Assembly (NCBI GenBank): GCA_040754955.1
Contig: JBFMCA010000011.1
Span: 543-64,542, forward strand
From: Acidobacteriota bacterium
GTDB lineage: Bacteria; Acidobacteriota; Vicinamibacteria; Vicinamibacterales; UBA2999
Length of the DNA: 64,000 bases
Reading direction: 5' to 3'
This document shows, piece by piece, positions 23,403 to 64,000 of this stretch; position 1 is the first letter of the stretch, and each line of letters begins with the position of its first letter. The notes below the pieces were generated by a model, which did no database searches, was not told where the DNA came from, and saw nothing but the letters and a program-made list of their open reading frames with translations. Both the position numbers and the translations under genes were made by a program.

Positions 23403-23414
23403 CGCGCGGTCCCT

Positions 23415-23478: not shown

Positions 23479-23480
23479 GT

Positions 23481-24836: not shown

Positions 24837-24866
24837 GACTGCCCTTCCGCTCTGATCGAACCCTGT

Positions 24867-26459: not shown

Positions 26460-26634
26460 ACCCGGCTACTTTATCAGCCCGTGGGGACACGCCCGCCGGC
26501 ATTCGACCGGCGATTCATCCCCGCCGGCTGCGTTGCCCCTCCCTCGGATATCCACGGATATTCCTCAGTCGTCGCGCCTTGCCGTCGGAAGTCTCGCCGG
26601 TCTCGGTGCTCGCCGGGTGTTTCACCACGGGCTG

Positions 26635-47590: not shown

Positions 47591-47608
47591 GCCCGCCCGA
47601 GTCGCCGG

Positions 47609-48994
47609 CTACCGCTGCGGCGTGGACGAGGGGGCCGGCGGCACGTGGAAGGTGAAGCTCGTGAACATCATCTCCTCCCACGTCTGGTCGCCCCAGAAGA
47701 CGTCCTTCGTCGGGTCCGGGTTCGACTTGTTGGACGGCGAGTTGTCGTACCAGGCCGAGGCGTGGATCGTCGTGCCGCCGGGCAGCCGCATCGGCTCGAC
47801 GAACTGGTACTCGTGCTGCCAGTTGAAGTCGTAGTTGGGCACCGAGAGGAACGGCTCGCGCCGGCCGTCCGGGTACTCCACCTCGTAGTGCCAGCGGACG
47901 CCCCGCACGTGGGTATGCGGCGTCAGGCTGAAGAGCACCACGTCGCGATTGAACGTCATCGAGGCATCCACCCGGTGGTCCTTCGCCCCGGCCGGGATGT
48001 GCAGCTCGCCGTTGATGAGCGACAGCGTGTTGAGGGGCCGCGCGGGCGGCTCCTTCGCGAAGATGAACGCCATCTTCGTGCGATCCGTGGTGGCCGTGCC
48101 GTTCGGCGTGTAGTGCATCTGGAAGACGAGCGACGCGCCCTTCGGGAGCCGCATCGCCGAGCCGGCCGGATAGACGCGATACGAGTTGCCGGGCACGTAG
48201 CCGCCCATCGACCCCTGCGTGCCGCGGATGCGCGGGCGATCGTTGGGCGGCAGGGCCTTGCGCTGCTCCTCGGGCAGCGGCGGGCCGCCGGTCTGGCCGG
48301 CGGGGATGCGCGTGCCGCCGTGGAAGGTCACGAGCGGCTGGCGGGCCGGCCCGCGAAGCGCCGCGGCCAGCGCCGCGCCCGGATTGGGCGCCGGTGCGCC
48401 CCCCGGGGGCGCGGGCGGCTTCACGTACACGATGACGTGGTGTACCACCGAGGGATTCCCCGGCCGCATCTCCCACGCCTGCACCCAGCGGTCCTCGTCG
48501 AAGTTGGCGGGCACCTCGAAGTACACGTACGGCACCTCGCCGCTGGCGGGAATCGGGTAGTCCTCCTGCATCTCGACCACCGCGTCGGGCGTGCCAATGG
48601 TCCACCCGGAGGGATACGTCGGCGCCGGCGGCAGGTCCTTCGCGTCGCCTTCCGGTGCCCCGGCCTCGACCCAGCGGAGGATGGTCTCCTTCTCGGCGCT
48701 CGTCAGCCGCCGCTCGTTGGCGAACCTGCCGATGGCCGGGTCGGCGTGCCACGGCGGCATGACGCCGTCGCGGACCCGCGCGGCGATGGACCGCGCCCAG
48801 GGCCGGGCCTCCTTGTAGGTCAGCAGCGACATGGGCGTCGCCTCGCCGGGGCGATGGCAGGTCGTGCAGTTGTCGAAGAAGATGGGCGCGACGTCCTTGC
48901 TGAAGGTCGGCGCCGTGGCCGAGGGCTGGGCCCCCGCGTGGCTGGCCAGTGCGGTGGCCGCGACGAACACGACGATGCCGGCGTTCGGTCTCAT
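47609..48994 (-). CDS. Secreted heme-c (CxxCH) domain fused to a PHM/DBH-like copper monooxygenase-type domain
   Basis: It has a signal peptide and FSKDVAPIFFDNCTTCHRPGE. HHVIVY and PHTHVRG...EEMMF resemble the CuH (HH..H) and CuM (HxH..M) sites of copper type II ascorbate-dependent monooxygenases. Confidence 0.55.
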   Translation of the reverse strand: MRPNAGIVVFVAATALASHAGAQPSATAPTFSKDVAPIFFDNCTTCHRPGEATPMSLLTYKEARPWARSIAARVRDGVMPPWHADPAIGRFANERRLTSAEKETILRWVEAGAPEGDAKDLPPAPTYPSGWTIGTPDAVVEMQEDYPIPASGEVPYVYFEVPANFDEDRWVQAWEMRPGNPSVVHHVIVYVKPPAPPGGAPAPNPGAALAAALRGPARQPLVTFHGGTRIPAGQTGGPPLPEEQRKALPPNDRPRIRGTQGSMGGYVPGNSYRVYPAGSAMRLPKGASLVFQMHYTPNGTATTDRTKMAFIFAKEPPARPLNTLSLINGELHIPAGAKDHRVDASMTFNRDVVLFSLTPHTHVRGVRWHYEVEYPDGRREPFLSVPNYDFNWQHEYQFVEPMRLPGGTTIHASAWYDNSPSNKSNPDPTKDVFWGDQTWEEMMFTSFTFHVPPAPSSTPQR

Positions 48995-49028
48995 GCGCAG
49001 GGGCTCCTCGGTCGGGAAGCGAAATCAC

Positions 49029-50303: not shown

Positions 50304-51290
50304 TCAGCAGGCGTGCACGATCGCGGCGCTGGTCCCGTGGAGCCACGCCGCGCCGCCGGGCTCGCCGAAGCACGCCGTTGCCGCGGCATCCGCCGTCATG
50401 CAGTCGTCGGCGCGCACCGTGAGGCTGCGCATGGGCGTCACGCGCGGCTCCGCGCTCCGCGGATCCAGCAGGTGGTGATAGCGCCGCCCGCGGTGCTCGA
50501 AGTACTGCACGTAATCGCCGGACGTGGCGACCGCCGCGTCCTCGAGGTCGAACTCGGCCACGAGACGGTCGGGGCGCTCCGGCGACCGGACGCCCACCCG
50601 CCACGGCCTGCCGTCGGCCGCGCGGCCGAGCGCATAGAGGTCGCCGCCGACATTGACCAGCGCATGCGCGATGCCCCGCTCGCGCAGCGCAGCCACGGCC
50701 TGGTCCACGGCATACCCCTTGGCGATGCCTCCGAGATCGATGCCCACGTCGGCGGACGTGAACCGCACGGCCGGGCGGCCCGACCAGGTGCCGACATCGA
50801 GCGCGCGATACAGACCGCGCCCCGCAAAGCGCTGCACGTCGGCGCCGGCCGGCGGCCTCGTCCGCCGCCCCACGTCCCAGAGCGCCACGGCCCCGCCCAG
50901 CGCCGGATCGAAGGCGCCGTCGGTGCGCGTCGCCCAGGTGAGCGCCGCGCCGACCACAGCCGCAGTCTCCCGCGTCACGACCACCGCTTCGGCGGCGGCC
51001 AAGCGGTTGGCGCGGCCGATGTCCGACGCCGCCTGGAACCGCGACATCAGGCCCTCGACGGCCCGGAGACGGGCCAGCGCCGCGTCGATCGCGGCGTGTG
51101 CGGCGCGGGCGTCGCGATGCGCCACCGCGAAATCGGCGATCGTGCCCATCACGGGCACCGTGCGCTGGGCAACCGCGAGCCGCCGCGCCTGCCACGGCAC
51201 CGCGGCGACGACGAGCGCGCCGACGCCGAGCGCCACGAACTCGCGCCGCGTCAGCCCCGACCCAGCCACCGGATCACGATTCGTCATCAT
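50304..51290 (-). CDS. apbE: FAD:protein FMN transferase ApbE (Tat signal)
   Basis: The LTRREFVALGVGA signal, VMGT, GGIAKGYAVD and TSGDY motifs are present. Confidence 0.9.
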   Translation of the reverse strand: MMTNRDPVAGSGLTRREFVALGVGALVVAAVPWQARRLAVAQRTVPVMGTIADFAVAHRDARAAHAAIDAALARLRAVEGLMSRFQAASDIGRANRLAAAEAVVVTRETAAVVGAALTWATRTDGAFDPALGGAVALWDVGRRTRPPAGADVQRFAGRGLYRALDVGTWSGRPAVRFTSADVGIDLGGIAKGYAVDQAVAALRERGIAHALVNVGGDLYALGRAADGRPWRVGVRSPERPDRLVAEFDLEDAAVATSGDYVQYFEHRGRRYHHLLDPRSAEPRVTPMRSLTVRADDCMTADAAATACFGEPGGAAWLHGTSAAIVHAC

Positions 51291-51453
51291 GCCACTCCAC
51301 CGGCTCGCCGCCGCGAGCCTCGTCGGGATGCGCGCACGCGCCCCCGTGGCACGTGCAGTGGGCGCACCTCCCGCGCGCCCGGCCCCGCTCGAGGATTCCG
51401 TACAGCGCGAACAGCGCCGCGAATCCGCCGACAGCGATGAGCACCGACGTCAT
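51274..51453 (-). CDS. Small Cys-rich membrane protein (NqrM- or FeoB-associated-Cys-rich-like)
   Basis: 59 aa: MTSVLIAVGGFAALFALYGILERGRARGRCAHCTCHGGACAHPDEARGGEPVEWHDDES. It has an ATGA overlap with the rnfA stop and a 17-nt overlap with the apbE start. Confidence 0.6.
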   Translation of the reverse strand: MTSVLIAVGGFAALFALYGILERGRARGRCAHCTCHGGACAHPDEARGGEPVEWHDDES

Positions 51454-52028
51454 GCCGTGCTGAAGAGGCCGGCGAAGCCCATGAACGCCAGCGACAGCGC
51501 GCCAGCCAGAATGAGAACCAGGCCCATGTTCCGGGCGGCGTCCGGCACGTCCGCCAGCTCCAGCTGCTCGCGGATCGAGGCCATGAGCACGAGCGCGATG
51601 GTCAGCCCGATGCCCGCGCCAACGGCAAAGAACACGCCCTCGACGAGCCCGTACCCGCGGTTGGTCGAGAAGATCGCCAGCCCCAGAATCGCGCAGTTCG
51701 TGGTGATGAGCGGCAGGAAGATGCCCAGGGCGCGGAAGAGCGCCGGACTCAGCTTCTTGATCGCCATCTCGACGATCTGCACGAGCGAAGCGATGACGAT
51801 GATGAACGCGATGATGCGCAGGTAAGGCGCCGACGGCAGCAGGAACGTGTTGAGCGCCCAGACGGCCACCGCGGTCACCACCATCACGAAGATGTTGGCG
51901 AGGCCCATCCTGAGCGCGGTCTCCACCTTCCCCGACACGCCAAGGAAGGGGCACAGGCCCAGGAACAGCGCCAGCGTGAAGTTGTTGACCACGGCCGCCG
52001 AGACCAGAATCCAGACGAGGTCCGCCAT
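51450..52028 (-). CDS. rnfA: Rnf electron transport complex subunit A
   Basis: MADLVWILVSAAVVNNFTLALFLGLCPFLGVS... 192 aa. Confidence 0.92.
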   Translation of the reverse strand: MADLVWILVSAAVVNNFTLALFLGLCPFLGVSGKVETALRMGLANIFVMVVTAVAVWALNTFLLPSAPYLRIIAFIIVIASLVQIVEMAIKKLSPALFRALGIFLPLITTNCAILGLAIFSTNRGYGLVEGVFFAVGAGIGLTIALVLMASIREQLELADVPDAARNMGLVLILAGALSLAFMGFAGLFSTA

Positions 52029-52029
52029 G

Positions 52030-52692
52030 CTAGGCCGCCTCCTCGACGTCCGCTCCGCCGCTCGACGCCGCACGGGCCCGCGCGTCGCCGCGCCGCGTGT
52101 ACCAGCTGAACAGGAGCAGGAGCACCCCGAGTGTGAGGAACCCGCCGGGCGGAAGGATCATGACGACCCACGGCTCGTAGCGGGGCCCGAACACGCTCAC
52201 CCCCAGGAACGTGCCGCTGCCGAGCACCTCGCGCACCGTCCCCATCAGCAGCATGGTCATTGCGAAGCCCGCCGACATGCCGAGCGCATCCAGGAGCGAT
52301 CGGCCCACGGGGTTCCTCGACGCGAACGCCTCCTGGCGCCCGAGGATGATGCAGTTCACCACGATCAACGCGACGAAGGCGCCGAGCTCCTTGTGCACGA
52401 CCGGCACGTATGCCTCGAGGATCATGTCGGCCATCGTCACGAAGGTCGCGATGATGAGGATGTAGCTCGAAATCCGCACGTCGCTCGGGACGATGCGCTT
52501 GATGGTGGACACGAGCAGGCTCGAACCCACGAGCACGAAGAGCACGGCCGCGCTCATGACGAGGCTGTTGGCGACGCTGTTGGTGACAGCCAGCGCCGGG
52601 CACAGGCCGAGCAGCTGCACCAGGACCGGGTTCTCGCGCCACAGGCCCTTGGTGAACTCCGTCGACGGCGGGGCTGGCTGCCGCGGGCTCAT
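52030..52692 (-). CDS. rnfE: Rnf electron transport complex subunit E
   Basis: GLWRENPVLVQLLGLCPALAVTNS... 220 aa. It has an ATGA overlap with the rnfG stop. Confidence 0.92.
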   Translation of the reverse strand: MSPRQPAPPSTEFTKGLWRENPVLVQLLGLCPALAVTNSVANSLVMSAAVLFVLVGSSLLVSTIKRIVPSDVRISSYILIIATFVTMADMILEAYVPVVHKELGAFVALIVVNCIILGRQEAFASRNPVGRSLLDALGMSAGFAMTMLLMGTVREVLGSGTFLGVSVFGPRYEPWVVMILPPGGFLTLGVLLLLFSWYTRRGDARARAASSGGADVEEAA

Positions 52693-53351
52693 GGCTGCGG
52701 CTCCCGCGGCACATGCGCCGCGATGATCGGTCCGATCCGCTCGAGCGTCGTGTTGATGGCCTGGACCACGGCCCGCGACGAGATGGTCGCGCCGGTGATC
52801 ATCACGAGCTCGTTCGGCAACCCGTCGCCCTGGCCGTCCCGCACGGGCACGAGCGGCGCCCGCACCCGCGCAAACTGCTCGACGAATCCGGCGTCCTTGA
52901 AGATCTTGTCCCCCAGGCCGGGTGTCTCCTTCGAGTCGAGCACGCGCATGCCCAGCAGCTGCGACGACGCGGGGTCGTACCCGAAGAGGAGCCGGATGGT
53001 GTCCTGGAAACCCGGCCCGGCGGCCAGGATGGCGTAGCCGGCCGGCGCCCCGCCGCGCCACCCCAGATACACGGCCTCGGCCGTGTCGGCATCCGCGCCG
53101 GCCGGGAGCGTCGGCGACAGCGTGGTGCCCGTGACGTAGAGGGTGTCGTACCGGTCCGGGGCGGCCAGCACTTCCTGGACGGCGGCCGCCAGCGCCGCCG
53201 CCTTGTTGGCGCGAATCCGGGGCGAGGTCGCCACGAACACGGACACGATCAGCAGGCCGGCGAGCGCGCCGAAGCCGCCCAGCGTGGCGATGAGACGCTG
53301 CGACGAGGCAGATGGACGGGCCGGCGGCGCGGACGGAGTGCCGTGGGTCAT
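52689..53351 (-). CDS. rnfG: Rnf electron transport complex subunit G (FMN-binding)
   Basis: It has an N-terminal TM, ETPGLGDK, and the flavinylation motif ITGATISSRAV. It has an ATGA overlap with the rnfD stop. Confidence 0.9.
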   Translation of the reverse strand: MTHGTPSAPPARPSASSQRLIATLGGFGALAGLLIVSVFVATSPRIRANKAAALAAAVQEVLAAPDRYDTLYVTGTTLSPTLPAGADADTAEAVYLGWRGGAPAGYAILAAGPGFQDTIRLLFGYDPASSQLLGMRVLDSKETPGLGDKIFKDAGFVEQFARVRAPLVPVRDGQGDGLPNELVMITGATISSRAVVQAINTTLERIGPIIAAHVPREPQP

Positions 53352-54352
53352 GCCGACACCTTCTCCGGTCCGGTCCCGAACACCCGCGGCTGGGTCGCCC
53401 GGTTGATGAACGGCACGAGCGCGTTCATGATCAGGATGGCGTACATCACACCCTCGGCCAAACCGCCCCACAGCCGAATCAGCACCACCAGCGCGCCCAC
53501 GCCCGCGCCGAAAATCCAGCTTCCGCGGTTGGTGACCGGCGAGGTCACCATGTCGGTCGCCATGTACACCGCGCCGAGCATGAGGCCGCCGGAGAACAGC
53601 ATGAACTGCGGCGTGGGATACCGGGCGGCGTCAATCGCATGGAATACGCCGCTGAGAGCCGCCACCGTCAGGAGGATGCTCACCGGGATGCGCCAATTGA
53701 GGTAGTTCTTGACGGCGAGATAGCCGCCGCACACGAGGATCAGCAGCGCGCTCGTCTCGCCCAGCGATCCCGCCGTGGTGCCGAGCGCCAGGTCGCGGAC
53801 GGGCGTCGCGATCCGCTCGAACTTCATCAAGCCGAGCGGCGTGGCCGTGGTGACCGCATCCACCTGGCTCGACATGAGGGGCAGCGCGAAGTTGTCGCCG
53901 CGCAGCGACCACCACGAGACGCCGTCGACCGCCGGCCACGTCGTGAGGGCCACGGGAAACGCCGCCTGCAGGAACGCCCGTCCGAGCAGCGCCGGATTGA
54001 ACACGTTCTGGCCCAGGCCGCCGAAGATGGTCTTGCCGAATCCGATGCCGAAGGCGCCTCCGAGCGCCGCCATCCAGAGCGGCAGCCCCGCCGGCAGGCA
54101 CAGCCCCAGCAGCAGGCCCGTGATGACGGCGGAGCCGTCGCCGACCACGCCCGTGCGGCCCCACGCCGCTTCGGCCCCGACGGCGCCAGCGACCGACGCC
54201 AGGATCACGAGCAGCGCGCTCGGGCCGAAGGCGTAGCCGGCGAAAACCACGATGGGCACCAGGCTCCCGACGACCGACCACATGATGGTGGGCGTCGAAT
54301 CGCGGCTGCGGAGGTGCGGCGACGCGGTGACGAGCAGGCGCGGGTCGGTCAT
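53348..54352 (-). CDS. rnfD: Rnf electron transport complex subunit D
   Basis: 334 aa: SPHLRS..., NPALLGRAF, and YMATDMVTSP (FMN-attachment Thr). It has an ATGA overlap with the rnfC stop. Confidence 0.92.
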   Translation of the reverse strand: MTDPRLLVTASPHLRSRDSTPTIMWSVVGSLVPIVVFAGYAFGPSALLVILASVAGAVGAEAAWGRTGVVGDGSAVITGLLLGLCLPAGLPLWMAALGGAFGIGFGKTIFGGLGQNVFNPALLGRAFLQAAFPVALTTWPAVDGVSWWSLRGDNFALPLMSSQVDAVTTATPLGLMKFERIATPVRDLALGTTAGSLGETSALLILVCGGYLAVKNYLNWRIPVSILLTVAALSGVFHAIDAARYPTPQFMLFSGGLMLGAVYMATDMVTSPVTNRGSWIFGAGVGALVVLIRLWGGLAEGVMYAILIMNALVPFINRATQPRVFGTGPEKVSA

Positions 54353-55677
54353 GCGGCCGGCTTTCGCTGCCGCAGGGCGGCCTTCGCCGCCGCAAACTGC
54401 TGCGACAGGGGGATGTTGGACGGGCACACGTAGGAACAGCACCCGCACAGCATGCAGTCGTTGAGGTGGTAGGTCGCGGCCATCTCGTCGTACCGCCCGG
54501 CCGCGGCCAGGGTGCCGAGCTGCTGCGGGTTGAGGAAGACCGGACAGGCGTCCAGACAGTGGCCGCACCGGATGCACGGATAGGACGCCTGCGGCTTGCA
54601 CTCCCGCGCCGCGAGGACGATGACGCCGGTCGTGCCCTTCGTGAGCGGCGTGTCGAGATTGGCCTGCGCCGCTCCCATCATCGGGCCGCCAAACACGATC
54701 TCGCGCGCGTCGTCGGTCAGCCCGCCGCAGGCCTCCAGCAGGTCGCCGAGCCGCGTACCGACCGGCACGATGAGGTTGGCGGGCTTGCGCACGCCGAGGC
54801 CGGTGACCGTCACGATTCGCTCCACGAGGGGCAGGCCCGTCTCGAAGACCTCGGCAATCGTCGCCACCGACGCGGCATTCTGCACGACGACCCCGACGTC
54901 CATCGGCAGCTTGCCCGACGGGACCTCGCGGCCCGTCACGGCCTCGATGAGCATCTTCTCGGCGCCCTGGGGATACTTCACCGTCAGGGGCAGGACGGTG
55001 ACGTCGAGGTCGTCGGGCCGGGTGCGGGCCAGCGCGTCGATGGCGTCGGGCTTGTTCCGCTCGACGCCGATGACGGCCTTCGACACGCCCAGAATGCGCA
55101 TCATGATCCGGATGCCGAGGTGCACCCGCCCCGGGTATTCGACCATCGACCGGTGATCGGTCGTCAGGTACGGCTCGCACTCGCAGCCGTTCACCAGGAT
55201 CATCGAGATGGGCTTGTCCGGGGGCGGCTTGAGCTTGACGTGCGTGGGGAACGCCGCGCCGCCCAGCCCCACGACGCCGGCCTGCTGCACCGCGGCGAGC
55301 AGCCCGGCCCGATCGAGCCCGCGCCAGTCGGGCACCAGGCGGGGGCGGGGGATCTGTCCGGAGAACGGCTCCACGGCGAGGCGCAGGGCCGGCTTGAAGG
55401 TTCCGTCCGGATGCGGGCTCAGCCCGAGCTCCATGATGGTACCGCTCGCCGACGCGTGGACGGGCGAGGACACCCACCCGTCGGGCTCCGCAATCAGGTC
55501 GCCGCGCTCGACCCGATCGCCCGCGCGCACGATCGGCTTCGCCGGCGTGCCCGCATGCTGGCTCAGCGGGAGCACCACCTCGGCGGGGTACGGCAGCCGC
55601 CGGATCTTCAGATGCGCCGTGAGCTGCTTCAGCTCCGGCGGATGCACGCCGTGCCGGAACGTCAGCGTCTCGAACAC
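54349..55677 (-). CDS. rnfC: Rnf electron transport complex subunit C
   Basis: 442 aa from a GTG preceded by GGGAGG 8 nt upstream. FRHGVHPPE, GLGGAAFPTHVK, and two 4Fe-4S motifs (CIRCGHCLDACP, CMLCGCCSYVCP) are present. Confidence 0.9.
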   Translation of the reverse strand: MFETLTFRHGVHPPELKQLTAHLKIRRLPYPAEVVLPLSQHAGTPAKPIVRAGDRVERGDLIAEPDGWVSSPVHASASGTIMELGLSPHPDGTFKPALRLAVEPFSGQIPRPRLVPDWRGLDRAGLLAAVQQAGVVGLGGAAFPTHVKLKPPPDKPISMILVNGCECEPYLTTDHRSMVEYPGRVHLGIRIMMRILGVSKAVIGVERNKPDAIDALARTRPDDLDVTVLPLTVKYPQGAEKMLIEAVTGREVPSGKLPMDVGVVVQNAASVATIAEVFETGLPLVERIVTVTGLGVRKPANLIVPVGTRLGDLLEACGGLTDDAREIVFGGPMMGAAQANLDTPLTKGTTGVIVLAARECKPQASYPCIRCGHCLDACPVFLNPQQLGTLAAAGRYDEMAATYHLNDCMLCGCCSYVCPSNIPLSQQFAAAKAALRQRKPAA

Positions 55678-55750
55678 CGCCGAGGCCTCCCGATGTACGC
55701 CATGCCGTCGCTCGCCGATTCCGATTCCGGTGCCCGCCGCTCCTGCCGCA

Positions 55751-58700
55751 TCAGTTGAACCGCTCCGCCCGCTTGACCCACTTCTCCAGGTCCTTCTCCT
55801 TGGGGTTGAGCGGCGTGCCGGGGTGGATGATGCCCACCGGACACTTCTCGGCGGCCATGACGATCTCGCGGAAGGTACCCGCGGAGGCATCCTTGATGTA
55901 CGCCTGCTTCTTCTCGTTGTAGGCGAACAGGCGCTTGTTGAGGTTCGTGCACTCGTTGCACGCCGTGCAGAGCTCCGAATCGATGTACGGCTCGAGGCCC
56001 ACGCCCTCGTCGTCTGCGGCCGCGGGCGGGGCCACGGCCGGGCTGGCCGCACCCGCCGCGGCAGCCGGCGCCGGTGCCGGCGCCCCCGCGGGCACGACGG
56101 GCGAGGGCGGCGGGGCCGCCGTGCCGCCGCCGTTCCCGCGGCCCAGGTCCACCTTTCCGAGCGGCTCCAGGTTCCGCATCTCCTGGACGCGGCGGAGCAG
56201 GTCGGCGATTGTCTCCTGGCCGTTCGCGGTGGCGCGCACCAGACCCTCGGCCATGCGTCGCGCCACGACGGCGGGATACCTGGTGCGCAGGTCGGCCACC
56301 GTCGCGGCATGCGCCGCCTCGAGCGCCGCGATCTCGGTTCCGAGAGTCGCCTGGACGTCGGCGGCGATGCGTTCGCGGATGGCCGGGGGCACGTCGAGCC
56401 CTGCCATGTGCCGCAACTGCTGCCAGAGAGACACGCGATCGTCCGCCAGCTCGACGATCTCGCGCGACGCCGCGAGCCGCACCAGGTGCCCGTCGCAGTC
56501 GCGGGCGTGGATGAACGGAATGCGGCCCTCGCGCTCGGCCGGCGACGCCGCCACGTACTCGTCGAAGCGCATGAGCGCCGCCGGATCCGCGTCGTCGGCG
56601 ACCACCTTGAAGTGCTTCCTGAAGCGCGACTCGGTGGCCGCCCAGTCGGCGATGGTCACGGGAAGCGTGAGCACCTGCGTCGCGCCGTCATTGTCGGTGT
56701 AGCGGAGGTCGTAGGTGGGCCACACCTCGTCGACCATGGGGTTGCCGTCGAGGCTCAGGCGATCGGCGAGATGCTTTCCGGCCGCTGGGTCGTACACCAG
56801 GAGCGGGAACGCGCGCGCTTCGAGGGCCAACCGGGCGGCGTCGGTCGCCGCGTCGTCGCCCAGGCCGTGCTCGGGCGGACACGGACAGTTGAGCACGAAG
56901 ACCGCCGGGTACCGCGACTGCAGCCCGCGCAGCACGCCCCCCAGCAGGTGCGACGGCGCCGCCTGGGACGACTGCACAAGGAACACGTTGCGGTGGGCGA
57001 TGGCCAGGAGCGCAAGCTCCTTCCGCGTCTCGGTCTTGCCGTGCTGGGCGCGGCCCCAGGCCGCCATGTCGCTCACCTGGCCGGTGAAGCCGCTCGTGCA
57101 CGCCTGCCCGCCGGTGTTCGAATAGACCTGCGTGTCGAGCACGACGACCCGGACCGGCTTGCCCGAGGCCAGGAGCCGCGACAGGTTCTGGAAGCCGATG
57201 TCCAGCATCGCGCCGTCACCGCCCACCGCGAGGATGGGCGGACACATCGCGAACTCCTCGTCGGTGAACTGGTGCCAGTCGAACCGGCCGAAGAACCCGT
57301 CGTGCTCGGCCGGGTCGTACCTGCCCTCGAGTTCGAGCTCGGCCCTGCGGACGGCGGAGAACCCGATCGCCATCTTGCGCATGTGCCCTTCGAACAGGCC
57401 GATCGCAATCGACGGCGCGTCCTGGAACAGGTGGTTGACCCACGGGAAGGGGTACGGGTTGTAGGGATACGTGCTGCCCCAGACCGACGAGCATCCCGTG
57501 GCGTTCGCGATGCCAGTGGTTGCGCGGCCCTTGCCGCTCGGTCCTTCGACGTACCGCCACCGGAGGTCCTTCAGCTCCTCGAGCAGGCGGGCGAGGCGGT
57601 CTACCTCGGCCTGCTTGGCCGGCGCCAGCGGGATATCGACGCGCCCGGCCGACGGCCGGTGTGTCTTCCCGACGGAGGCCAGCGACGCGTCGGACGCGAG
57701 CAGGCCGCGGGCCTTTCTGTCGAGCTCCGCGATGAGCGTGTCGAGTCGCTCCACGTAGCGCTTCACGCGCGGCAGCATCGTCGCATTGATGGCCGACACG
57801 ACGAGGTGCATGACGGTCTTCTCGCCGCAGCCCATGCAGGCGCCGTCGCCGCCCACCATGGAGCGGTAGTTGCGCTGCTTGAGCAGCAACGAGGACAGCA
57901 CGCCGATGCCCTCGTCCACGCTCGCGACGTTCACGTAGCGGTCGTGGGTCTCGGGCAGGAACTGCCAGAGGTGCCAGTTCCGCCGGAGCTTCTCGACCAC
58001 CTCGTCGGTCTGCTTGACGGTCGTGAGCGCCCCGTCAGGGCAGACGCGCACGCAGATGTTGCAGCCTTTGCACGCGTCGGGGTTGACGGTGATGGACAGC
58101 AGACCACCCGTCCCCTTCTCCTTCGACTCGGGCACGTCGAAGAAGGGCGCGGTCTTGGCGAGCGGGAACTCGGCCAGCGCGGAGTACACCGGCGCGAACT
58201 CGGCGTCCAGCGCGTGCCGGCGTTCCGGGTCCATGCCCAGCTTGCCGACCACCGTGTCGTAGGCGCCCGACACCACCTGGCCGAACGTCGTGAAGGGCAC
58301 GCCCTTCAGCGTCCGACGGACCTCGGCGGCGAGCGGCTTCAGGATCTGGCGCACCCGGTCCCGTCGCCGCCCGTTCTCGGACGACCGCACGGCGGCCTCG
58401 AGCACCTCGACGACGTCGCTGACCACGCCGGGAATGGCGGCGTCGGGACACTGCACCCAGCACTGGCTGCATCCCGTGCACTTGTCCGGAATGAACTCCG
58501 GGACCTCGAAGCGGACGTTCGTCATGTCGCGGATGGTGCTGGTGGCGGCCGGCATGGCCGAGATCGCCGCGTACGGATCGGCAATGCCGTCCTCGCCCAT
58601 CTTGCAGAGGACGCAGACCTGCTCCCAGAACCGGCCCCCGTGGCCGATGCCGTGCGCGACGTCGGTCCCGCCGAGGGTGGCCGGCATCTGGGGCACGGTG

Positions 58701-60847
58701 CCCACATAGGCGTCCCCGTCGAGCGTCAACGTGGCGGCATCCACCTCCACCAGCTCGTCGTAGCCGCGCCGGATGACGCGGACGTTGTCCTCGACGACCT
58801 TCTCGCCGAGGTGACCGAACTTCTTCTGCAGCTGCCGGCGAATCCCGTCGAAGATCGTCCGCTCGTCGAGCTTCTCGGCCTTGGCGAGCGGGGACGCGCG
58901 GAAGAACGCGCCCATGAACGCTGCACCCTGCATGCGGTACCTGAGCTCGGGATCGCTGGCCTCGTCGCTGGCGATCTTGAACCCGTCGATGAGGCAGAAG
59001 GTGTACCGGTGGTCGATGATGCGCTTGCGCGCCCACGGCGGGAGACTCCGCCAGACCTCCGCGACGGGCCGGTCGCCCTGCATGATGAACACGCCGCCAT
59101 CCTGCAGGCCGGCCAGCGGGTCGGAGTGCTTGAAGACGTTGGGATCGGGCGACAGCACCACGGAGACGAACTTCAGCTCGGCGTTGACCCGGATCGGCTC
59201 GCGCGCGAGCGTGGCGTAGAAGGTCGTCGGCTGCCCCTTCTTCTCGGACCCGTACTTCGGATTGGCCTGGATATGCAGGCCGCAGAGGTCGGCGGCCGTC
59301 TGCGCCAGGTTCTTGCCGGTCGTGATCGCGCCCCAGCCGCCGACCGAGTGGATGCGGATGGAGATCGCGCCCGGCGGCAGGAGGTTCACGGGCGCGGCCG
59401 GCCGCAGCGACAGCTCGCCCAGCTGCGGGTACGACTCGAGCAGATCCTCCTGCCAGATCTGCAGCTTCGGAAACCGCGTCTCGGGCCGCACGAAGTCGAT
59501 GCCCAGGTAGAACTGCCGGCGCCGGGCGCCGCCCTCGAGCATGTTGTCGACGGCGGCGACGAGATCGGCCGGCTGCAGATCGCGGCTGCCAAGGCCGAAG
59601 CAGCCGGAGAAGAACGCCGGCATCTGCTGCGGGCGGCAGGCCGCCAGCCCGGGGTACGGCGGCGAGGCAGGCGTCCGGCCGTTCTCGAGCGCCTTGTACA
59701 TGGCCGCGCGGATCTCCCTGAGCAGCGGCAGGTCGACCGCCAGCGGCTGGTCGGTCCGCTCGAGCACCGTCACGCCGCGCTTCCCGGCGAGCATCGCCGT
59801 AATCAGGTCGGCCGGGAACGGCCGGAACATCGTGACGTTGAGCACGCCGACCCGCAGCTTGCGGGTCGCGCGCAGGTGGTCGACCACCGCCTCGCAGTTC
59901 GGAACCACGCTGCCCTGGCCGACGAGCACCCACTCCGCATCCTCCAGGCGGTAGCCCGCGGCGCGCGCGTACATGCGGCCCGTGAGCGCCGCGTACTCGG
60001 CCATCGCCCGATCGGCAAGCTCGGGAAGATGGTCGAAGTAGAAGGGGCGCTGCGCCGCCACGCCCTGCGCGTAGCTGTCCTGGTTCTGCACCACGCCCAG
60101 CATGGCCGGGTAGTCCAGGTTGAACAGCTCGGGCACACGCCGGCGCTGCCTGCCGAACACCCAGCGCTGCGCCGGCGTGGGCGATTCGATGAGGTCCGCC
60201 GGATCGCCCAGGTACTCGCGCACGAGCTCGCGTTCCGGCATGGCCATCGTCTCGATCACGTGGCTCGTCAGGAACCCGTCCTGGGCGAGGATGCCCGGGT
60301 TGAGCGAGAGCTCCGCGATGCGGTGGGCAACCAGGTTCAGGTCGGCCGCTTCCTGGACATTCTTGGCGAACAGCTGGAAGAACCCGGTGTCGTCGACGGC
60401 GTGGTAGTCGTCGTGGCCGGCATGGACGTTGAGCGCGTGCTTGGTGATGGCCCGGGCGGCGATGTTCAGGACGTAGGTGAGGCGCTTGCCCACCGCGGCG
60501 TAAAGCGACTCGTGCATGTAGACGATGCCCTGCCCGCTCGAGAAGTTCGTCGCGCGCAGCCCCGTCATGCTCATCCCGGCGGTGACCGCAGCCGCCGCGT
60601 GCTCGCCCTCCGGCTCGAAGAACAGCAGCGACCGACCGTGCACGTTCAGCGTGCCGGCGGCGACGGCCTGCGCCCACCCCTCGCCCATCTGCGTGGACGG
60701 CGTGATCGGGTACGCGCCGGCGCCCTCGCTGGCGGCCGTCTCCATCTCGACGATGGCGCCGCTGCCGTCGGTGGCCGTCCGGACACCCGGATACTTGGGA
60801 GCCTGGCGTCCGGCCGCCGGGGGCCGCGCCGTCGCAGTCGTGATCAT
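55751..60847 (-). CDS. por: Pyruvate:ferredoxin (flavodoxin) oxidoreductase, unusually large (1698 aa), with a Pro/Ala linker and C-terminal single-cluster ferredoxin domain
   Basis: YPITPST (domain I), SVGGWGAITTGKNL (domain III), CTGCSQCWVQCP and CKGCNICVRVCP (ferredoxin domain), and GGDGAMLDIGFQNL (TPP) are present. The C-terminus carries CTACNECT...CPVGII. The ATG at 60847 overlaps the rnfB stop (ATGA) and is preceded by GGAAGGAG. Confidence 0.9.
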   Translation of the reverse strand: MITTATARPPAAGRQAPKYPGVRTATDGSGAIVEMETAASEGAGAYPITPSTQMGEGWAQAVAAGTLNVHGRSLLFFEPEGEHAAAAVTAGMSMTGLRATNFSSGQGIVYMHESLYAAVGKRLTYVLNIAARAITKHALNVHAGHDDYHAVDDTGFFQLFAKNVQEAADLNLVAHRIAELSLNPGILAQDGFLTSHVIETMAMPERELVREYLGDPADLIESPTPAQRWVFGRQRRRVPELFNLDYPAMLGVVQNQDSYAQGVAAQRPFYFDHLPELADRAMAEYAALTGRMYARAAGYRLEDAEWVLVGQGSVVPNCEAVVDHLRATRKLRVGVLNVTMFRPFPADLITAMLAGKRGVTVLERTDQPLAVDLPLLREIRAAMYKALENGRTPASPPYPGLAACRPQQMPAFFSGCFGLGSRDLQPADLVAAVDNMLEGGARRRQFYLGIDFVRPETRFPKLQIWQEDLLESYPQLGELSLRPAAPVNLLPPGAISIRIHSVGGWGAITTGKNLAQTAADLCGLHIQANPKYGSEKKGQPTTFYATLAREPIRVNAELKFVSVVLSPDPNVFKHSDPLAGLQDGGVFIMQGDRPVAEVWRSLPPWARKRIIDHRYTFCLIDGFKIASDEASDPELRYRMQGAAFMGAFFRASPLAKAEKLDERTIFDGIRRQLQKKFGHLGEKVVEDNVRVIRRGYDELVEVDAATLTLDGDAYVGTVPQMPATLGGTDVAHGIGHGGRFWEQVCVLCKMGEDGIADPYAAISAMPAATSTIRDMTNVRFEVPEFIPDKCTGCSQCWVQCPDAAIPGVVSDVVEVLEAAVRSSENGRRRDRVRQILKPLAAEVRRTLKGVPFTTFGQVVSGAYDTVVGKLGMDPERRHALDAEFAPVYSALAEFPLAKTAPFFDVPESKEKGTGGLLSITVNPDACKGCNICVRVCPDGALTTVKQTDEVVEKLRRNWHLWQFLPETHDRYVNVASVDEGIGVLSSLLLKQRNYRSMVGGDGACMGCGEKTVMHLVVSAINATMLPRVKRYVERLDTLIAELDRKARGLLASDASLASVGKTHRPSAGRVDIPLAPAKQAEVDRLARLLEELKDLRWRYVEGPSGKGRATTGIANATGCSSVWGSTYPYNPYPFPWVNHLFQDAPSIAIGLFEGHMRKMAIGFSAVRRAELELEGRYDPAEHDGFFGRFDWHQFTDEEFAMCPPILAVGGDGAMLDIGFQNLSRLLASGKPVRVVVLDTQVYSNTGGQACTSGFTGQVSDMAAWGRAQHGKTETRKELALLAIAHRNVFLVQSSQAAPSHLLGGVLRGLQSRYPAVFVLNCPCPPEHGLGDDAATDAARLALEARAFPLLVYDPAAGKHLADRLSLDGNPMVDEVWPTYDLRYTDNDGATQVLTLPVTIADWAATESRFRKHFKVVADDADPAALMRFDEYVAASPAEREGRIPFIHARDCDGHLVRLAASREIVELADDRVSLWQQLRHMAGLDVPPAIRERIAADVQATLGTEIAALEAAHAATVADLRTRYPAVVARRMAEGLVRATANGQETIADLLRRVQEMRNLEPLGKVDLGRGNGGGTAAPPPSPVVPAGAPAPAPAAAAGAASPAVAPPAAADDEGVGLEPYIDSELCTACNECTNLNKRLFAYNEKKQAYIKDASAGTFREIVMAAEKCPVGIIHPGTPLNPKEKDLEKWVKRAERFN

Positions 60848-61707
60848 CGTCCGGCTCCTTCCAACACGGTGGCGAGGCGCGCGCGTCCGAGCTGCTGCGC
60901 GCCGTCGACCCACACGATCGCGCCCGTCGGACAGCGCCGGATGGCGTCCGGCGAGGCCGCGGCGTTCCTGGAGTAGTCGATCACCGCGAGCCCGCTCTCG
61001 ATGCTGATGAGGTTCGGCGCGCCGTCGGCGGCGCACCGGCCGCACCCGTTGCACGCCACGGCGCACACGCCGGTGGCCGCCTCGCCGTCGAGCAGGTTGC
61101 GGCACTGCACCAGCAGATGCTGGTCGGTCGGCATCAGCGTGAACAGGTCCTTGGGACAGGCCTCCACGCAGTCGTTGCAGGCCGTGCACCTTTCGGGGAT
61201 CACGACCGGCAGGCCGACGTCGTTCATGTAGATCGCGTCGAAGTCGCAGGCCTCCCGGCAGTCCGCGAGGCCGAGGCAGCCCCACGTGCACGCCTTACCG
61301 CCGCCGGCCACGGCGGCCGCGGCCCGGCACGTCTGAAGGCCCACGTAATCGGCCCGGTGCGGCGCGACGTCCGAGCCGCCGGCACAGAGCAGCCGCGCGA
61401 CCCGGGGCGTCGCAGCGCCGACGTCGACCCCGAGATAGCCCGCGATGTCCTCGCGCATGTCGGGTGACGCGACGGTGCAGTTGGCCGGCTGGATCGCGCC
61501 GGCGACGAGCTGCTCGGCAAAGGCCCGGCACCCGGCCAGACCGCAGGCGCCGCAGTTGTTGCCGGGGAGGAGGCCGGCCACGGCGTCGATGCGCGGATCC
61601 TCCCAGACGTACAGCTTGGTGCGCGCCACGGCGATGGCCGCCGCGAAGACGGTGCCGACGCCGCCGAGGATGGCGGCAGACACCACGAAGGCGGACACAT
61701 CAGGCAC
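60844..61707 (-). CDS. rnfB: Rnf electron transport complex subunit B
   Basis: It has an N-terminal TM, LPGNNCGACGLAGCRAFAEQL, CTWGCLGLADC, and 4Fe-4S ferredoxin motifs (CTACNDCVEACP, CNGCGRCAADG...CPTGAI). Confidence 0.88.
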   Translation of the reverse strand: MPDVSAFVVSAAILGGVGTVFAAAIAVARTKLYVWEDPRIDAVAGLLPGNNCGACGLAGCRAFAEQLVAGAIQPANCTVASPDMREDIAGYLGVDVGAATPRVARLLCAGGSDVAPHRADYVGLQTCRAAAAVAGGGKACTWGCLGLADCREACDFDAIYMNDVGLPVVIPERCTACNDCVEACPKDLFTLMPTDQHLLVQCRNLLDGEAATGVCAVACNGCGRCAADGAPNLISIESGLAVIDYSRNAAASPDAIRRCPTGAIVWVDGAQQLGRARLATVLEGAGR

Positions 61708-61719: not shown

Positions 61720-62712
61720 TCAGAGGTCGGCCTGCTGCAGCAGCCAGGCCGCGAGCTTGTCGACCGGGTCCGCCGCCTCGGCCGCGGGCAGGGGCGGCGC
61801 CGGAGCGGCGGTTGCGACCCCGCCGGCGTGCAGCGCGCGCAGCTGCTCGAGCTCCTCGGTCTGCTGCGCGACCGTGACACCGCCGCTTCGCTTGCGGTGA
61901 TTCAGCTCGGGCATCTGCAGCTCGCCCAGCCGCACCCCCAGCGTCGCGCCAGCCGCGGGGTCGTGCACGAACCGGGCGGAGCGCTCGGAGACGAGCGCGA
62001 CGATGCCCGGCCCGCTCCAGGCGGCCAGCCGGGCGACCACCGACGCGTCGGCCGCCTGCGCGACGAACGTCCGCGGCGTGACCAGCCGCACCAGCGGCGC
62101 CGGGCTCGTGTCGCCGCGCGCCACGAGCACGATTCGCATGCCGCCGTCGAGGCACTCGGCCAGGCCCGCGGGGCGGAGGTCTGTGCCGTCTACTTCAATC
62201 ACGAGAGGTGGCGCCACCGCGCGCTCAGCCTGGCTCCACAGCGTGAACGGGAACCGGATGAGCCAGCCGTCGTGGTCGGACGGCCGGTACCGGCCGCTCC
62301 GCGCCGCGTCGGCGACCCGGGCGGCCCCGATGCCCCGTCCGAGGTCGGCCAGCCGTTCCATCGTGGCGGTGTACAGCGACTCGCCCGGCGCCACATCGAG
62401 CACGAAGCCCTCGTCGCCGCGGGCGGCGACTGCGGCCAGCGCCTCGAGCGCGCGGGCCATCACGGCGTGCACCGCGGGCGAGGCCGCCGGCTCGACCCCA
62501 AGCACGCCGGCCAGCCGCTGCACGTCGATGTGCCTGGCGCCCAGGGGTCCGAGCTCGGCGGCGAGCACGGCCAGGCGGTCGTCGGCCGCCGCGCGGTGGG
62601 TGTCGAGGTAGACCCGCACGTCCTCGAGCGTCGCCGCCACGGCGGACCGGAAGGTTTCCCGAGGGCGCGTGAGCGCGGCCAACGCCGCGGCGGTGCGGGC
62701 ATCAGACGGCAT
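61720..62712 (-). CDS. Hypothetical protein (330 aa) between korB and rnfB
   Basis: The ORF has protein-like, Ala/Leu/Arg-rich composition and a single Cys. Its ATG at 62712 overlaps the korB 3' end by 11 nt, and its stop lies 12 nt before the rnfB start. I recognise no family. Confidence 0.6.
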   Translation of the reverse strand: MPSDARTAAALAALTRPRETFRSAVAATLEDVRVYLDTHRAAADDRLAVLAAELGPLGARHIDVQRLAGVLGVEPAASPAVHAVMARALEALAAVAARGDEGFVLDVAPGESLYTATMERLADLGRGIGAARVADAARSGRYRPSDHDGWLIRFPFTLWSQAERAVAPPLVIEVDGTDLRPAGLAECLDGGMRIVLVARGDTSPAPLVRLVTPRTFVAQAADASVVARLAAWSGPGIVALVSERSARFVHDPAAGATLGVRLGELQMPELNHRKRSGGVTVAQQTEELEQLRALHAGGVATAAPAPPLPAAEAADPVDKLAAWLLQQADL

Positions 62713-63652
62713 ACTTGTCGAACTCCTCGTTGAGCCGCGCGATCTTCTCGTGCGCCGTGTAGACGCGCTGCGCGCGCAGCTCCTCGTAGCGCTCACGCGA
62801 GTCGTCCTTGAAGAAGATGCCGAGGCGGATCTTCCCGGCGCCCTCGGCCAGGTGCCGCGCGACGTCGAGGTCCCGCGGATCGTGCACGCGCTTCTGGGTG
62901 TAGATGCGGTCCAGCTCCGGCGCCTCGACGCCGTCGGGATGCACCAGCATCTCGACGAGCTTCGGATTGCGGACCGCTTCCTGGTAGAGGTCGTCCGTGT
63001 ACTGAGGGCAGCGCTGGAGGATCCGGACGAACGAGAACCCGCGATGCCGGTACGCGGCCTGGATCGTCGCGAAGAGATGCGACGGAATCCAGTCGGCCGT
63101 CTGCGCCACGAACGACGCGTTCGAGATGCCCAGCGTCGCCGCCAGCGGGTTGAGGGGGATCAGGAAGCTTCCCTTTGGCTGCGTGTTGCTCGGGTAGTGC
63201 TGCGGCGTCGTCGGCGAGGTCTGGTTCTTCGTCAGCCCGTAGATGCCGTTGTCGAGCATCAGGGCGACCATCCGCACGTTGTAGCGGACCGCGTGGATCC
63301 AGTGGCCCGCGCCAATCGAACAGCAGTCGCCATCGCCCATCACGACGAACACGTGCAGGTCGGGCCGCCGCAGCCGGACGCCCGTCGCGATGGGCAGAGC
63401 CCGCCCATGAATGCCGTGGAAGCCGTAGGTGGTCAGGTAGTGCGGGAACCGGCTCGCGCAGCCGATGCCGGAGACGAACACCGTCTTTTCCGGCGGCAAT
63501 TGCTCCGCCTCGAGCAGGCGCTGCACCGCCGCCAGGATGGCGTGGTCGCCGCAGCCCGGACACCAGCGCGCGACCGCGCCGGTGTAGTCTTCCATGCTCC
63601 AGCTGCGGTCGTCGTCGACGTCGCAGCCGAGCAGCGAACACGACAGCGGCAT
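62702..63652 (-). CDS. korB: 2-oxoacid:ferredoxin oxidoreductase beta subunit (TPP-binding)
   Basis: WCPGCGDHAIL, GIGCASRFP and MGDGDCCSIGAGH are present. 316 aa. It has a TGATG overlap with the korA stop. Confidence 0.9.
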   Translation of the reverse strand: MPLSCSLLGCDVDDDRSWSMEDYTGAVARWCPGCGDHAILAAVQRLLEAEQLPPEKTVFVSGIGCASRFPHYLTTYGFHGIHGRALPIATGVRLRRPDLHVFVVMGDGDCCSIGAGHWIHAVRYNVRMVALMLDNGIYGLTKNQTSPTTPQHYPSNTQPKGSFLIPLNPLAATLGISNASFVAQTADWIPSHLFATIQAAYRHRGFSFVRILQRCPQYTDDLYQEAVRNPKLVEMLVHPDGVEAPELDRIYTQKRVHDPRDLDVARHLAEGAGKIRLGIFFKDDSRERYEELRAQRVYTAHEKIARLNEEFDKYAV

Positions 63653-64000
63653 CACGGCTGCCTCCCCGGCAACATGGACTTGATGCCGTCGTAGATGCTC
63701 CCGGGCCGCAGGGGCTGGCCCGGCACGCGGGTCCAGCAGTCCACGTCCACCAGCGCGTGGGCGCGCAGCAGCCAGGCGAGCTGCCCCATCCGGCGGTTCT
63801 CGGGCGTGATGTACGGATCGCCGAGCCGATCGGAGTAGTTGATCTCGACGGTCGCCACCTTGCGGAAGCGCCCGAAGATCTCCTTGAGGCCGGGCTCGAG
63901 CGGGGACAGGAAGCGAAGCTGCACGGACGACACGCGCAGCCCCTCGGCGCGGACCCGGTCCACCGCCTCTTCGATGGCCCCCTTGGTGGACCCCCATCCC
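63652..64000 (-). CDS. korA: 2-oxoacid:ferredoxin oxidoreductase alpha subunit, C-terminal part (5' end outside window)
   Basis: The frame is open to the window edge: ...WGSTKGAIEEAVDRVRAEGLRVSSVQLRFLSPLEPGLKEIFGRFRKVATVEINY... Confidence 0.85.
   Translation of the reverse strand, partial: GWGSTKGAIEEAVDRVRAEGLRVSSVQLRFLSPLEPGLKEIFGRFRKVATVEINYSDRLGDPYITPENRRMGQLAWLLRAHALVDVDCWTRVPGQPLRPGSIYDGIKSMLPGRQP

Follow-up and report, generated by a model that had tools for sequence, protein, structure and literature searches.

A ferredoxin domain tethered to a divergent PFOR-like enzyme within an Rnf operon of an Acidobacteriota bacterium

Locus and gene structure

The stretch of DNA analysed here, hereafter the window, comprises 64,000 nucleotides from an Acidobacteriota bacterium (GenBank assembly GCA_040754955.1, contig JBFMCA010000011.1, positions 543 to 64,542 of the forward strand) and encodes an Rnf complex on its minus strand. 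Between rnfB and rnfC lies a gene for a 1698-residue protein that resembles pyruvate:ferredoxin oxidoreductase (PFOR) and ends in a ferredoxin domain. The C-terminal 212 residues of this protein are a real and conserved module, consisting of a helical stalk, a flexible tether rich in Ala, Pro and Glu, a [4Fe-4S]-type ferredoxin domain, and a basic tail. An initial reading of the locus made from the letters alone (the sequence-only reading) had described the extension as a helical segment, a Pro/Ala linker and a CxxCxxC...CP domain. All three were found, and the strings it quoted lie where it had placed them.

The open reading frame (ORF) of the PFOR-like protein is bounded by positions 55751 and 61291 on the minus strand. 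Its probable start is the ATG at 60847 (MITTATAR...), which yields a gene at 55751..60847 (minus) encoding 1698 amino acids and a stop codon; the assignment is based on the ORF and start, the Pfam domains and the match to the solved PFOR 1b0p. Landmarks in the translated protein are LWQQLRHMAGLDV at residue 1474, GGGTAAPPPS... at residue 1573, EPYIDSELC at residue 1619 (window position 55993), and CPVGIIHPG at residue 1669. The start codon and the rnfB stop codon overlap by 4 nucleotides (ATGA, 60844-60847), which suggests translational coupling, and a candidate ribosome-binding site, GGAAGGAG, is located just upstream of ATG 60847 inside the 3' end of rnfB. The window has a G+C content of 71%. 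Read in the frame of the enzyme, third codon positions have a G+C content (GC3) of 0.94 for the core, 0.90 for the helical segment, 0.91 for the linker and 0.95 for the ferredoxin.

An ORF of 1922 codons also runs antisense to the PFOR-like gene (55208-60976, plus strand). Its G+C content by codon position is 0.89/0.51/0.72, the pattern expected of a shadow frame at 71% G+C, and it was rejected as a gene.

Ferredoxin domain, tether and tail

Analysis of the isolated extension with Pfam returned Fer4_13 at residues 1622-1675 with a score of 34.7 bits, above the gathering cut-off of 24.5. When a profile of 37 sequences of the ferredoxin part was compared with the PDB, it matched ferredoxin I of Desulfovibrio africanus (1dax/1fxr, E 8e-9), with all four cysteines of the CxxCxxC...CP pattern aligned to its ligands; this protein was the best match of the terminal domain in both sequence and structure. 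On these profile matches the domain, which occupies residues 1619-1676 (55820..55993, minus), is a single-[4Fe-4S]-type ferredoxin, as the sequence-only reading had proposed. The predicted ligands are C1627, C1630, C1633 and C1669. All four, together with P1670, are invariant in an alignment of 30 full-length sequences, and the cysteines are at least 90% conserved among 84 distant representatives. In one clade (L058-L080) the fourth cluster cysteine is followed by Thr (AAEKCTAQVIHPG) and not by Pro. Four cysteine ligands predict a [4Fe-4S] cluster in this domain, which would bring the total to four clusters per monomer.

The ferredoxin domain is followed by a conserved C-terminal tail, GTPLNPKEKDLEKWVKRAERFN, at residues 1677-1698 (55754..55819, minus). 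The tail has an isoelectric point of 9.5 and a predicted terminal helix at residues ~1687-1697, and it begins at the point where D. africanus ferredoxin I ends in the profile alignment. Its 22 residues are near-invariant, conserved like the cluster ligands, both in the 120 best homologues and in the 84 distant representatives. Across the 120 homologues the last ~80 residues of the protein as a whole are almost invariant, the opposite of the linker that precedes them.

Two further segments connect the ferredoxin domain to the enzyme. The helical segment covers residues 1487-1561 (56165..56389, minus) and includes a conserved IARRxAEGLxRA motif; a distant clade has a shorter version of it. An AlphaFold2 model of residues 1396-1580, calculated with 26 homologues and having a mean predicted local distance difference test score (pLDDT) of 78.6, shows a compact alpha/beta unit followed by a long helix of 52 residues (1488-1539) and a short helix (1547-1556), with pLDDT below 50 from residue 1562 onwards. 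Residues 1562-1618 (55994..56164, minus) form the linker, a predicted disordered stretch rich in Ala, Pro, Gly and Val that closes with an acidic patch and corresponds to gappy, length-variable alignment columns. Among the 120 homologues the linker (the region of residues 1566-1618) measures 35-68 residues with a median of 46, is composed of 35% A, 11% P, 11% E, 10% V and 10% G, aligns poorly, and usually ends with the acidic run. It is thus of low complexity, Ala/Pro-rich, variable in length and sequence, and predicted to be disordered, as befits a tether, and the Pro/Ala linker of the sequence-only reading stands, with Glu as a further frequent residue. Helix and linker together span 57-90 residues in a clade of Bacteroidota, Gammaproteobacteria and Acidobacteriota (L058-L080), compared with 90-172 residues in the Gemmatimonadota clade.

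Conservation of the fusion

The 120 best homologues come from independent assemblies, and all of them are 1649-1723 residues long with ~99% query coverage; PF13370 was detected in nearly all. The closest bear the names Gemmatimonadales or Gemmatimonadota. When one genome per species was scanned, at least 595 genomes had a relative of the PFOR-like protein, and 80 of the loci were retained for comparison. The ferredoxin part is present in 67 of the 68 loci with enough sequence, and core identity to the window protein falls to only 48-50% in distant groups. The extension is therefore conserved in orthologues in length class, in its cysteines and in its presence at the locus.

The sequence-only reading had allowed for an assembly error or frameshift fusing a separate ferredoxin gene to the PFOR-like gene. 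A GC-rich, low-complexity linker is the error-prone type of sequence, and beyond this we found no evidence in support of such an artefact. The same architecture in 120 of 120 homologues, a ferredoxin part in the same frame as the core in 66 of 66 genome loci, and the uniform GC3 of 0.90-0.95 refute it, and we regard its probability as negligible.

A divergent enzyme core

Pfam searches with the full-length protein identified POR_N (residues 42-219, E 1.6e-45), PFOR_II (304-386, E 1.9e-13), POR (503-697, E 1.1e-25), two copies of Fer4 (near residues 790-800 and 926-936) and TPP_enzyme_C (1204-1256), in addition to the terminal Fer4_13 match. The best solved relatives are homodimeric PFORs, namely those of D. 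africanus (1b0p, E 6e-88) and Moorella thermoacetica (E 1e-83). Residues 1-1362 (56762..60847, minus) constitute the part alignable to solved PFORs, and the phmmer alignment to 7plm/1b0p spans residues 25-816 and 1113-1362. As in fused homodimeric PFORs, domains I, II and III are found in one chain together with two domain V motifs and domain VI, and the domain order I, II, III, V, VI is the same as in the D. africanus (1b0p/7plm) and M. thermoacetica (6cin) enzymes of the NifJ/TIGR02176 type. The two CxxCxxCxxxCP motifs of domain V (C790/793/796/800-P and C926/929/932/936-P) are invariant in the alignment of 30 full-length sequences, as are the proximal-cluster cysteines C1004, C1007 and C1119. 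Domain VI aligns to residues 834-1111 of 7plm and matches TPP_enzyme_C; its thiamine pyrophosphate (TPP) site, G1210-D1211-G1212...N1244-T-G-G-Q, is also invariant.

Despite this architecture the protein scores only 408.8 bits against TIGR02176, the NCBIfam equivalog for PFOR, which has a cut-off of 911 bits, and it falls outside that family. NCBI names its relatives '2-oxoacid:acceptor oxidoreductase family protein'. Given the missed cut-off and these names, pyruvate is not established as the substrate, and the enzyme is best described, on present sequence comparisons, as a divergent PFOR-like 2-oxoacid:acceptor oxidoreductase. The identification of the carrier as PFOR by the sequence-only reading thus holds for the relationship of the core to 1b0p and fails at the level of the equivalog.

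The divergence is also apparent in the core itself. Relative to D. africanus PFOR, an insert of ~110 residues (residues ~806-918, window ~57800-58430) separates the two [4Fe-4S] motifs of domain V. A second insert (residues ~1015-1112, window ~57510-57800) lies between the cluster-binding GDGACMGCGE and the remainder of domain VI, and both inserts are kept throughout the family. The core extends over ~1486 residues, of which the final ~125 cannot be aligned to known PFORs. These residues, 1363-1486 (56390..56761, minus), are conserved within the family, and AlphaFold2 predicts for them a small unit of alpha/beta structure (pLDDT 86-94). A search of the PDB with residues 1340-1500 at E<=10 retrieved no PFOR chain and only chance matches to methylmalonyl-CoA epimerase, and a Foldseek search with the model of residues 1396-1580 gave no significant match and no PFOR chain (best E 0.4). 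A likeness of the region preceding the linker to MarR/PadR-type regulators appeared at the same Foldseek E value of 0.4 and was treated as chance. Since alignable PFOR homology ends at residue ~1362 and residues 1340-1500 have no PFOR match, the stretch taken by the sequence-only reading for the canonical C-terminus of PFOR appears instead to be a family-specific C-terminal subdomain of the core. The protein therefore differs from homodimeric PFORs in its equivalog score (409/911 bits), its large inserts, the unalignable residues 1363-1486, the presence of stalk, linker and ferredoxin, and the location of its gene inside an rnf operon.

Association with the Rnf operon

All six genes rnfB, C, D, G, E and A are present and co-oriented, constituting an Rnf operon that is kept in related loci; the Rnf complexes of Acetobacterium woodii (9eri) and Clostridium tetanomorphum (7zc6) likewise have six subunits. 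rnfB (60844..61707, minus) was assigned from its ORF limits and from the Pfam families FeS and Fer4. Its product is of the clostridial multi-cluster type and is closest to the RnfB proteins of A. woodii (9eri, E 1e-55) and C. tetanomorphum (7zc6, E 4e-45). rnfC (54349..55677, minus; RnfC_N, Complex1_51K, SLBB and Fer4) has a probable GTG start at 55677, which lies 73 nucleotides past the stop codon of the PFOR-like gene and is preceded at 8 nucleotides by GGGAGG. It is followed by rnfD, rnfG, rnfE and rnfA (51450..54350, minus), assigned from ORF limits and matches to NQR2_RnfD_RnfE, FMN_bind and, twice, Rnf-Nqr, and the cluster ends with apbE, encoding a flavin transferase (50304..51290, minus; Pfam ApbE, 4.5e-71). 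The arrangement rnf(B)CDGEA with an adjacent apbE is that found in other bacteria (PMC5736913).

Two genes upstream of rnfB belong to the same gene cluster. Directly upstream of rnfB is the gene for protein X, a product of ~329 residues with no Pfam domain (61720..62709, minus). It is preceded by a korB-like gene for the beta subunit of a 2-oxoacid:ferredoxin oxidoreductase (OFOR), assigned from its ORF limits and matches to TPP_enzyme_C and PFO_beta_C (62702..63997, minus). The corresponding korA-like gene would lie beyond the end of the window; in a related locus (L001) a korA-like gene is found upstream. Compared with known Rnf operons, this one has an OFOR gene of 5.1 kb inserted behind rnfB and ahead of rnfC, with korAB and the gene for protein X further upstream. 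A 2017 paper on the types of rnf operon mentions apbE as the sole frequent neighbour (PMC5736913).

Using the Rnf proteins of the window as tblastn queries, we examined synteny in the 80 related loci. rnfC directly follows the PFOR-like gene in 55 of the 57 loci with at least 1.5 kb of downstream sequence, five overlaps of a few nucleotides being counted as adjacent. Of 67 loci, 53 have rnfB immediately upstream of the PFOR-like gene, whereas the Bacteroidota loci have it after rnfA. The linkage extends across Gemmatimonadota, Planctomycetota, Acidobacteriota, Bacteroidota, Gammaproteobacteria and Myxococcota, and the isolates that carry it include Aquiflexum sp. TKW24L (Bacteroidota) and Ectothiorhodospira magna B7-7 (Gammaproteobacteria). 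A functional tie between the tethered ferredoxin and Rnf, suggested by the sequence-only reading, is strongly backed by this synteny and by the position of the gene between rnfB and rnfC in the window.

Three of the related loci have additional features. In L050, ~6.8 kb (15064-21893) that include genes for a MacB/FtsX-type ABC (ATP-binding cassette) permease and an amidohydrolase separate the PFOR-like gene from rnfC. In L049 (8219-16822), from a metagenome-assembled genome of Thermoanaerobaculia, the PFOR-like gene is followed by rnfB and not rnfC, and further PFOR-like fragments or paralogues with 30-33% identity occur on both flanks. L053 encodes a paralogue (9899-14626) with 62.6% core identity that ends inside the helical segment and has neither linker nor ferredoxin. 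No rnf genes were found within 10 kb of this gene, the sole paralogue found away from rnf, and a divergent regulator gene of the ScfR type (short-chain fatty acyl-CoA) lies upstream of it.

A second carrier of the ferredoxin module

To determine how far the ferredoxin domain and tail extend beyond PFOR-like proteins, a profile of the two was searched against 1.84 billion representative proteins, each standing for a cluster at 50% identity. It matched 1140 clusters, with E<=1e-10 for 1005. Among the best 150 of the 1140, the module is located at the extreme C-terminus in 148, the exceptions being P0179, a read-through gene call, and P0122. In 94 of the same 150 the carrier is not PFOR-like; the median length of these proteins is 802 residues, and Fer4_13 is the only Pfam family detected in them. 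A regular expression for the TPP motif, applied to the 150 representatives, was too strict, missing most of the clear PFOR-like members, and was dropped.

One such carrier, P0150 (832 residues), was aligned with the window protein. Its ferredoxin and tail are 68% identical to those of the window, and it shows 25% identity (E 2e-23) to domain VI and the helical segment of the window protein (residues 995-1543). The GDG...NTGGQ TPP motif and the proximal-cluster cysteines are replaced in this single pairwise alignment, on which the loss of motifs in the ~830-residue carriers is based. The ~830-residue carrier thus appears to be a degenerate domain VI-like protein that is apparently non-catalytic.

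We traced this second and more diverse carrier, of 832-861 residues, to three contigs (L081 8001-10586; L082 8001-10499; L083 8001-10526), where its gene is located between korB and rnfB in the order korA - korB - second carrier - rnfB - PFOR-like gene - rnfC. The PFOR-like protein of L081 has 1524 residues and ends past the helical segment without linker or ferredoxin; that of L082 is split into products of 582 and 920 residues, with Fer4_13 listed for neither; and that of L083 is cut by the contig end. The position of the second carrier is that of protein X in the window. Protein X is 47% identical to the syntenic ORF of L001, matches residues 373-449 of the carrier P0163 weakly (E 2e-6), its similarity to the Fd-carrying proteins lying in their degenerate TPP-site region, and has an Ala/Pro stretch near its C-terminus and no ferredoxin. 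These features identify it, as a prediction, as a short relative of the degenerate domain VI-like carrier that lacks the ferredoxin.

The ferredoxin and tail are always encoded in an rnf operon together with one or two OFOR-type enzymes, and exactly one copy was found per locus in all 74 loci with a match. Between the window and the operons with the second carrier, the ferredoxin and tail share 67-68% identity, whereas the carriers share 25-34%, RnfB 53-56%, RnfC 52-54%, RnfD 55-57% and KorB 45-53%. With an identity above that of all other components, the ferredoxin and tail are under the strongest constraint in the system. Matches of 74-307 residues were also considered as a free, stand-alone form of the ferredoxin. 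They look like cut metagenomic gene calls, with P0135 beginning inside the linker and P0123 consisting of an unrelated N-terminus followed by the linker, and we do not claim such a form.

The existence of two carriers bears on the role assigned to the extension. The sequence-only reading had treated it as a C-terminal extension of PFOR. The module is not specific to the PFOR-like protein, as it is also found on a degenerate domain VI-like protein encoded between korB and rnfB. Because a scaffold without cofactors can be the carrier, the module is better called the built-in ferredoxin of the operon than a prolongation of the electron-transfer wire of PFOR. The same finding concerns a second possibility, that the module is an intramolecular accessory unrelated to Rnf, with its cluster lengthening the internal wire or protecting the enzyme and a free ferredoxin acting as the real acceptor. 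There is a precedent in D. africanus PFOR, whose C-terminal domain VII protects against oxygen, and the helical segment of the present family is retained even where the ferredoxin is absent. On the other hand, the linker is long and disordered, the module is also borne by a carrier without cofactor motifs, rnf synteny is almost perfect across phyla, and the sole paralogue away from rnf (L053) lacks the ferredoxin. We consider an accessory role of this kind very improbable.

Proposed function

We propose that the module is a portable, tethered ferredoxin dedicated to electron transfer between OFOR-type enzymes and Rnf, which on balance is the probable explanation of the data. The tethered domain would be the operon's own carrier, taking up electrons from the surface-exposed cluster of the PFOR-like enzyme and, probably, from the adjacent KorAB-type enzyme as well. 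Its electrons would then pass one at a time to the domain of RnfB that accepts ferredoxin; cytoplasmic ferredoxin is accepted at the C-terminal cytoplasmic domain of RnfB (PMC12174285). In this way 2-oxoacid oxidation would be wired directly to the reduction of NAD+ and the pumping of ions by Rnf, or the reverse reaction would be supported. The strong conservation of the ferredoxin may reflect a need to fit several partners, with the basic tail as a putative docking element. Portability would be expressed in the presence of one module per operon, placed either on the PFOR-like protein or on the degenerate domain VI-like scaffold.

Several findings weigh against this proposal. The AlphaFold2 model of the ferredoxin and tail has a pLDDT of 68, of moderate confidence. 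Its top 8 Foldseek matches are all single-cluster ferredoxins (from D. africanus ferredoxin I, Bacillus thermoproteolyticus, Pyrococcus furiosus, D. gigas ferredoxin II and Rhodopseudomonas palustris) with weak statistics: the best E value is 0.034, the probability 0.96 and the template modelling (TM) scores 0.35-0.46. Given these weak statistics, the ferredoxin fold foreseen by the sequence-only reading is a prediction, and the identity of the domain is drawn from the sequence profile. In the distant clade the helix and linker together amount to only 57-90 residues, so a long reach is not universal. RnfB is of the ordinary clostridial type, with no extra docking domain visible. rnfC does not directly follow the PFOR-like gene in L050 and L049. 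Finally, as the second carrier has neither TPP nor cluster motifs, transfer from the distal cluster of PFOR to its own tail cannot be the general mechanism.

A serious alternative to a swinging ferredoxin is a static anchor, in which the ferredoxin and tail are bound permanently to Rnf (RnfB or RnfC) as a fixed relay while the linker holds the OFOR dimer at the pump. Conservation of the tail and the ferredoxin surface exceeds that of the Rnf subunits, as would be expected of a tight, permanent interface, the ferredoxin is always at the extreme C-terminus, and a non-catalytic scaffold can bear it. Even so, the cluster of the OFOR would still have to reach a ferredoxin fixed to Rnf, and some movement would be needed anyway. 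The length of the linker, which varies about twofold among close relatives and more between clades, also fits a loose tether better than a strut. We judge the static arrangement unlikely, though it deserves to be kept in view.

Electrons might also flow in the opposite direction. Rnf, driven by NADH and the ion gradient, would then reduce the tethered domain, which would in turn supply the PFOR-like and KorAB enzymes for the synthesis of pyruvate and 2-oxoglutarate by reductive carboxylation, insulated from oxygen and other acceptors. The operon pairs two OFOR-type enzymes, one korAB-like and one PFOR-like, with Rnf. Enzymes of these two types catalyse the ferredoxin-dependent carboxylations of the reductive tricarboxylic acid (TCA) cycle, and an aerobic or facultative way of life prevails in many of the phyla that host the operon. 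Rnf is moreover reversible and is a source of reduced ferredoxin in several organisms (PMC12174285; PMC5736913). The closest relatives of RnfB, by contrast, are those of A. woodii and C. tetanomorphum, whose Rnf oxidises ferredoxin; the gene order is rnf(B)CDGEA and not that of the 'anabolic' rnfABCDGE type (PMC5736913); and no reductive TCA marker gene was seen within the 64-kb window. The pairing of KorAB-like and PFOR-like enzymes with Rnf fits either direction of electron flow, and we regard the reductive direction as possible and somewhat doubtful.

The dedicated-carrier proposal can be taken further, to a more speculative scheme that we put forward tentatively. The order korAB - X - rnfB - PFOR-like - rnfCDGEA - apbE might describe an insulated low-potential circuit in which one tethered [4Fe-4S] domain, recognised by its tail, serves two OFORs and Rnf within a membrane megacomplex. 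Such a circuit could support either oxidation with extra ion pumping or an Rnf-powered synthesis of pyruvate or 2-oxoglutarate in largely aerobic or facultative phyla, in each case without a soluble ferredoxin pool. The carrier module might have been swapped between paralogous scaffolds through recombination in the helical segment that they share.

Ferredoxin is usually regarded as a pool of freely diffusing molecules through which PFOR and Rnf, as separate entities, meet. A tethered ferredoxin that occurs in at least 595 species genomes and ~1000 clusters at 50% identity, always in an rnf operon and in one copy, suggests a hard-wired route from OFOR to the pump. If this is true, it would be a natural case of the insulation of electron flow that synthetic biologists have reportedly attempted to engineer with enzyme-ferredoxin fusions (PMC2847965). 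It would also add a new accessory part to Rnf complexes and make their recognition of ferredoxin testable through the conserved residues of the tail and surface. Models of central carbon and energy metabolism would need revision for Gemmatimonadota, many Bacteroidota and other groups that are abundant in the environment, in which such genes currently carry no annotation beyond 'pyruvate-ferredoxin/flavodoxin oxidoreductase' or 'family protein'.

Relation to known systems

Two known kinds of system, the enzyme-ferredoxin fusion and the Rnf operon, are combined in this arrangement, which occurs widely and seems not to have been characterised. A ferredoxin of the ferredoxin I type is a physiological acceptor of D. 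africanus PFOR. In that organism ferredoxin I is a free protein of 64 residues, whereas the domain described here is tethered and has an extra basic tail of 22 residues. A PFOR with a C-terminally fused acceptor that needs no free ferredoxin is known in eukaryotes, namely the pyruvate:NADP+ oxidoreductase (PNO) of Euglena gracilis and Cryptosporidium. The fused part of PNO is a flavoprotein resembling NADPH-cytochrome P450 reductase that reduces NADP+ directly, and PNO, unlike the module described here, has no Fe-S carrier domain, Ala/Pro tether or Rnf partner. In terms of mechanism, a further analogy may be the swinging lipoyl arm of E2 subunits in 2-oxoacid dehydrogenase complexes, a small carrier domain whose flexible, Ala/Pro-rich linker lets it call at several active sites in the course of 2-oxoacid oxidation. 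The E2 arm is a lipoyl-lysine domain and not an Fe-S protein, and as the two have no sequence relationship the likeness would be one of mechanism only.

Natural fusions of cytochrome P450 with ferredoxin are represented by CYP51fx of Methylococcus capsulatus and by more than 50 bacterial CYP51s, with linkers of 20-30 residues (PMC7947880). The ferredoxin of CYP51fx has three invariant cysteines and delivers electrons into the enzyme, whereas the present domain has four and would presumably act as an electron carrier from (or to) a 2-oxoacid oxidoreductase. It also differs from CYP51fx in its longer linker, its helical stalk and its tie to a membrane pump. Full-text searches, which do not cover most papers in subscription journals and may have passed over a prior description, returned no account of a fusion of PFOR with ferredoxin or of an OFOR or PFOR gene located inside an rnf operon. 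A 2025 review of RNF and NQR contains no mention of PFOR, of a fusion, or of 'Gemmatimon'.

Other features of the window

Two other groups of genes on the minus strand were recorded. Three tandem paralogues of the PmbA/TldD metallopeptidase family, with translations of 552, 461 and 532 residues when taken to the ORF limits, are encoded at 21822-26465. At 46019-49024 there is a gene of the AMP-binding (acyl-CoA ligase) type, upstream of which lies an ORF of 471 residues whose coding bias is strong (GC3 of 0.96) and which has no Pfam domain.

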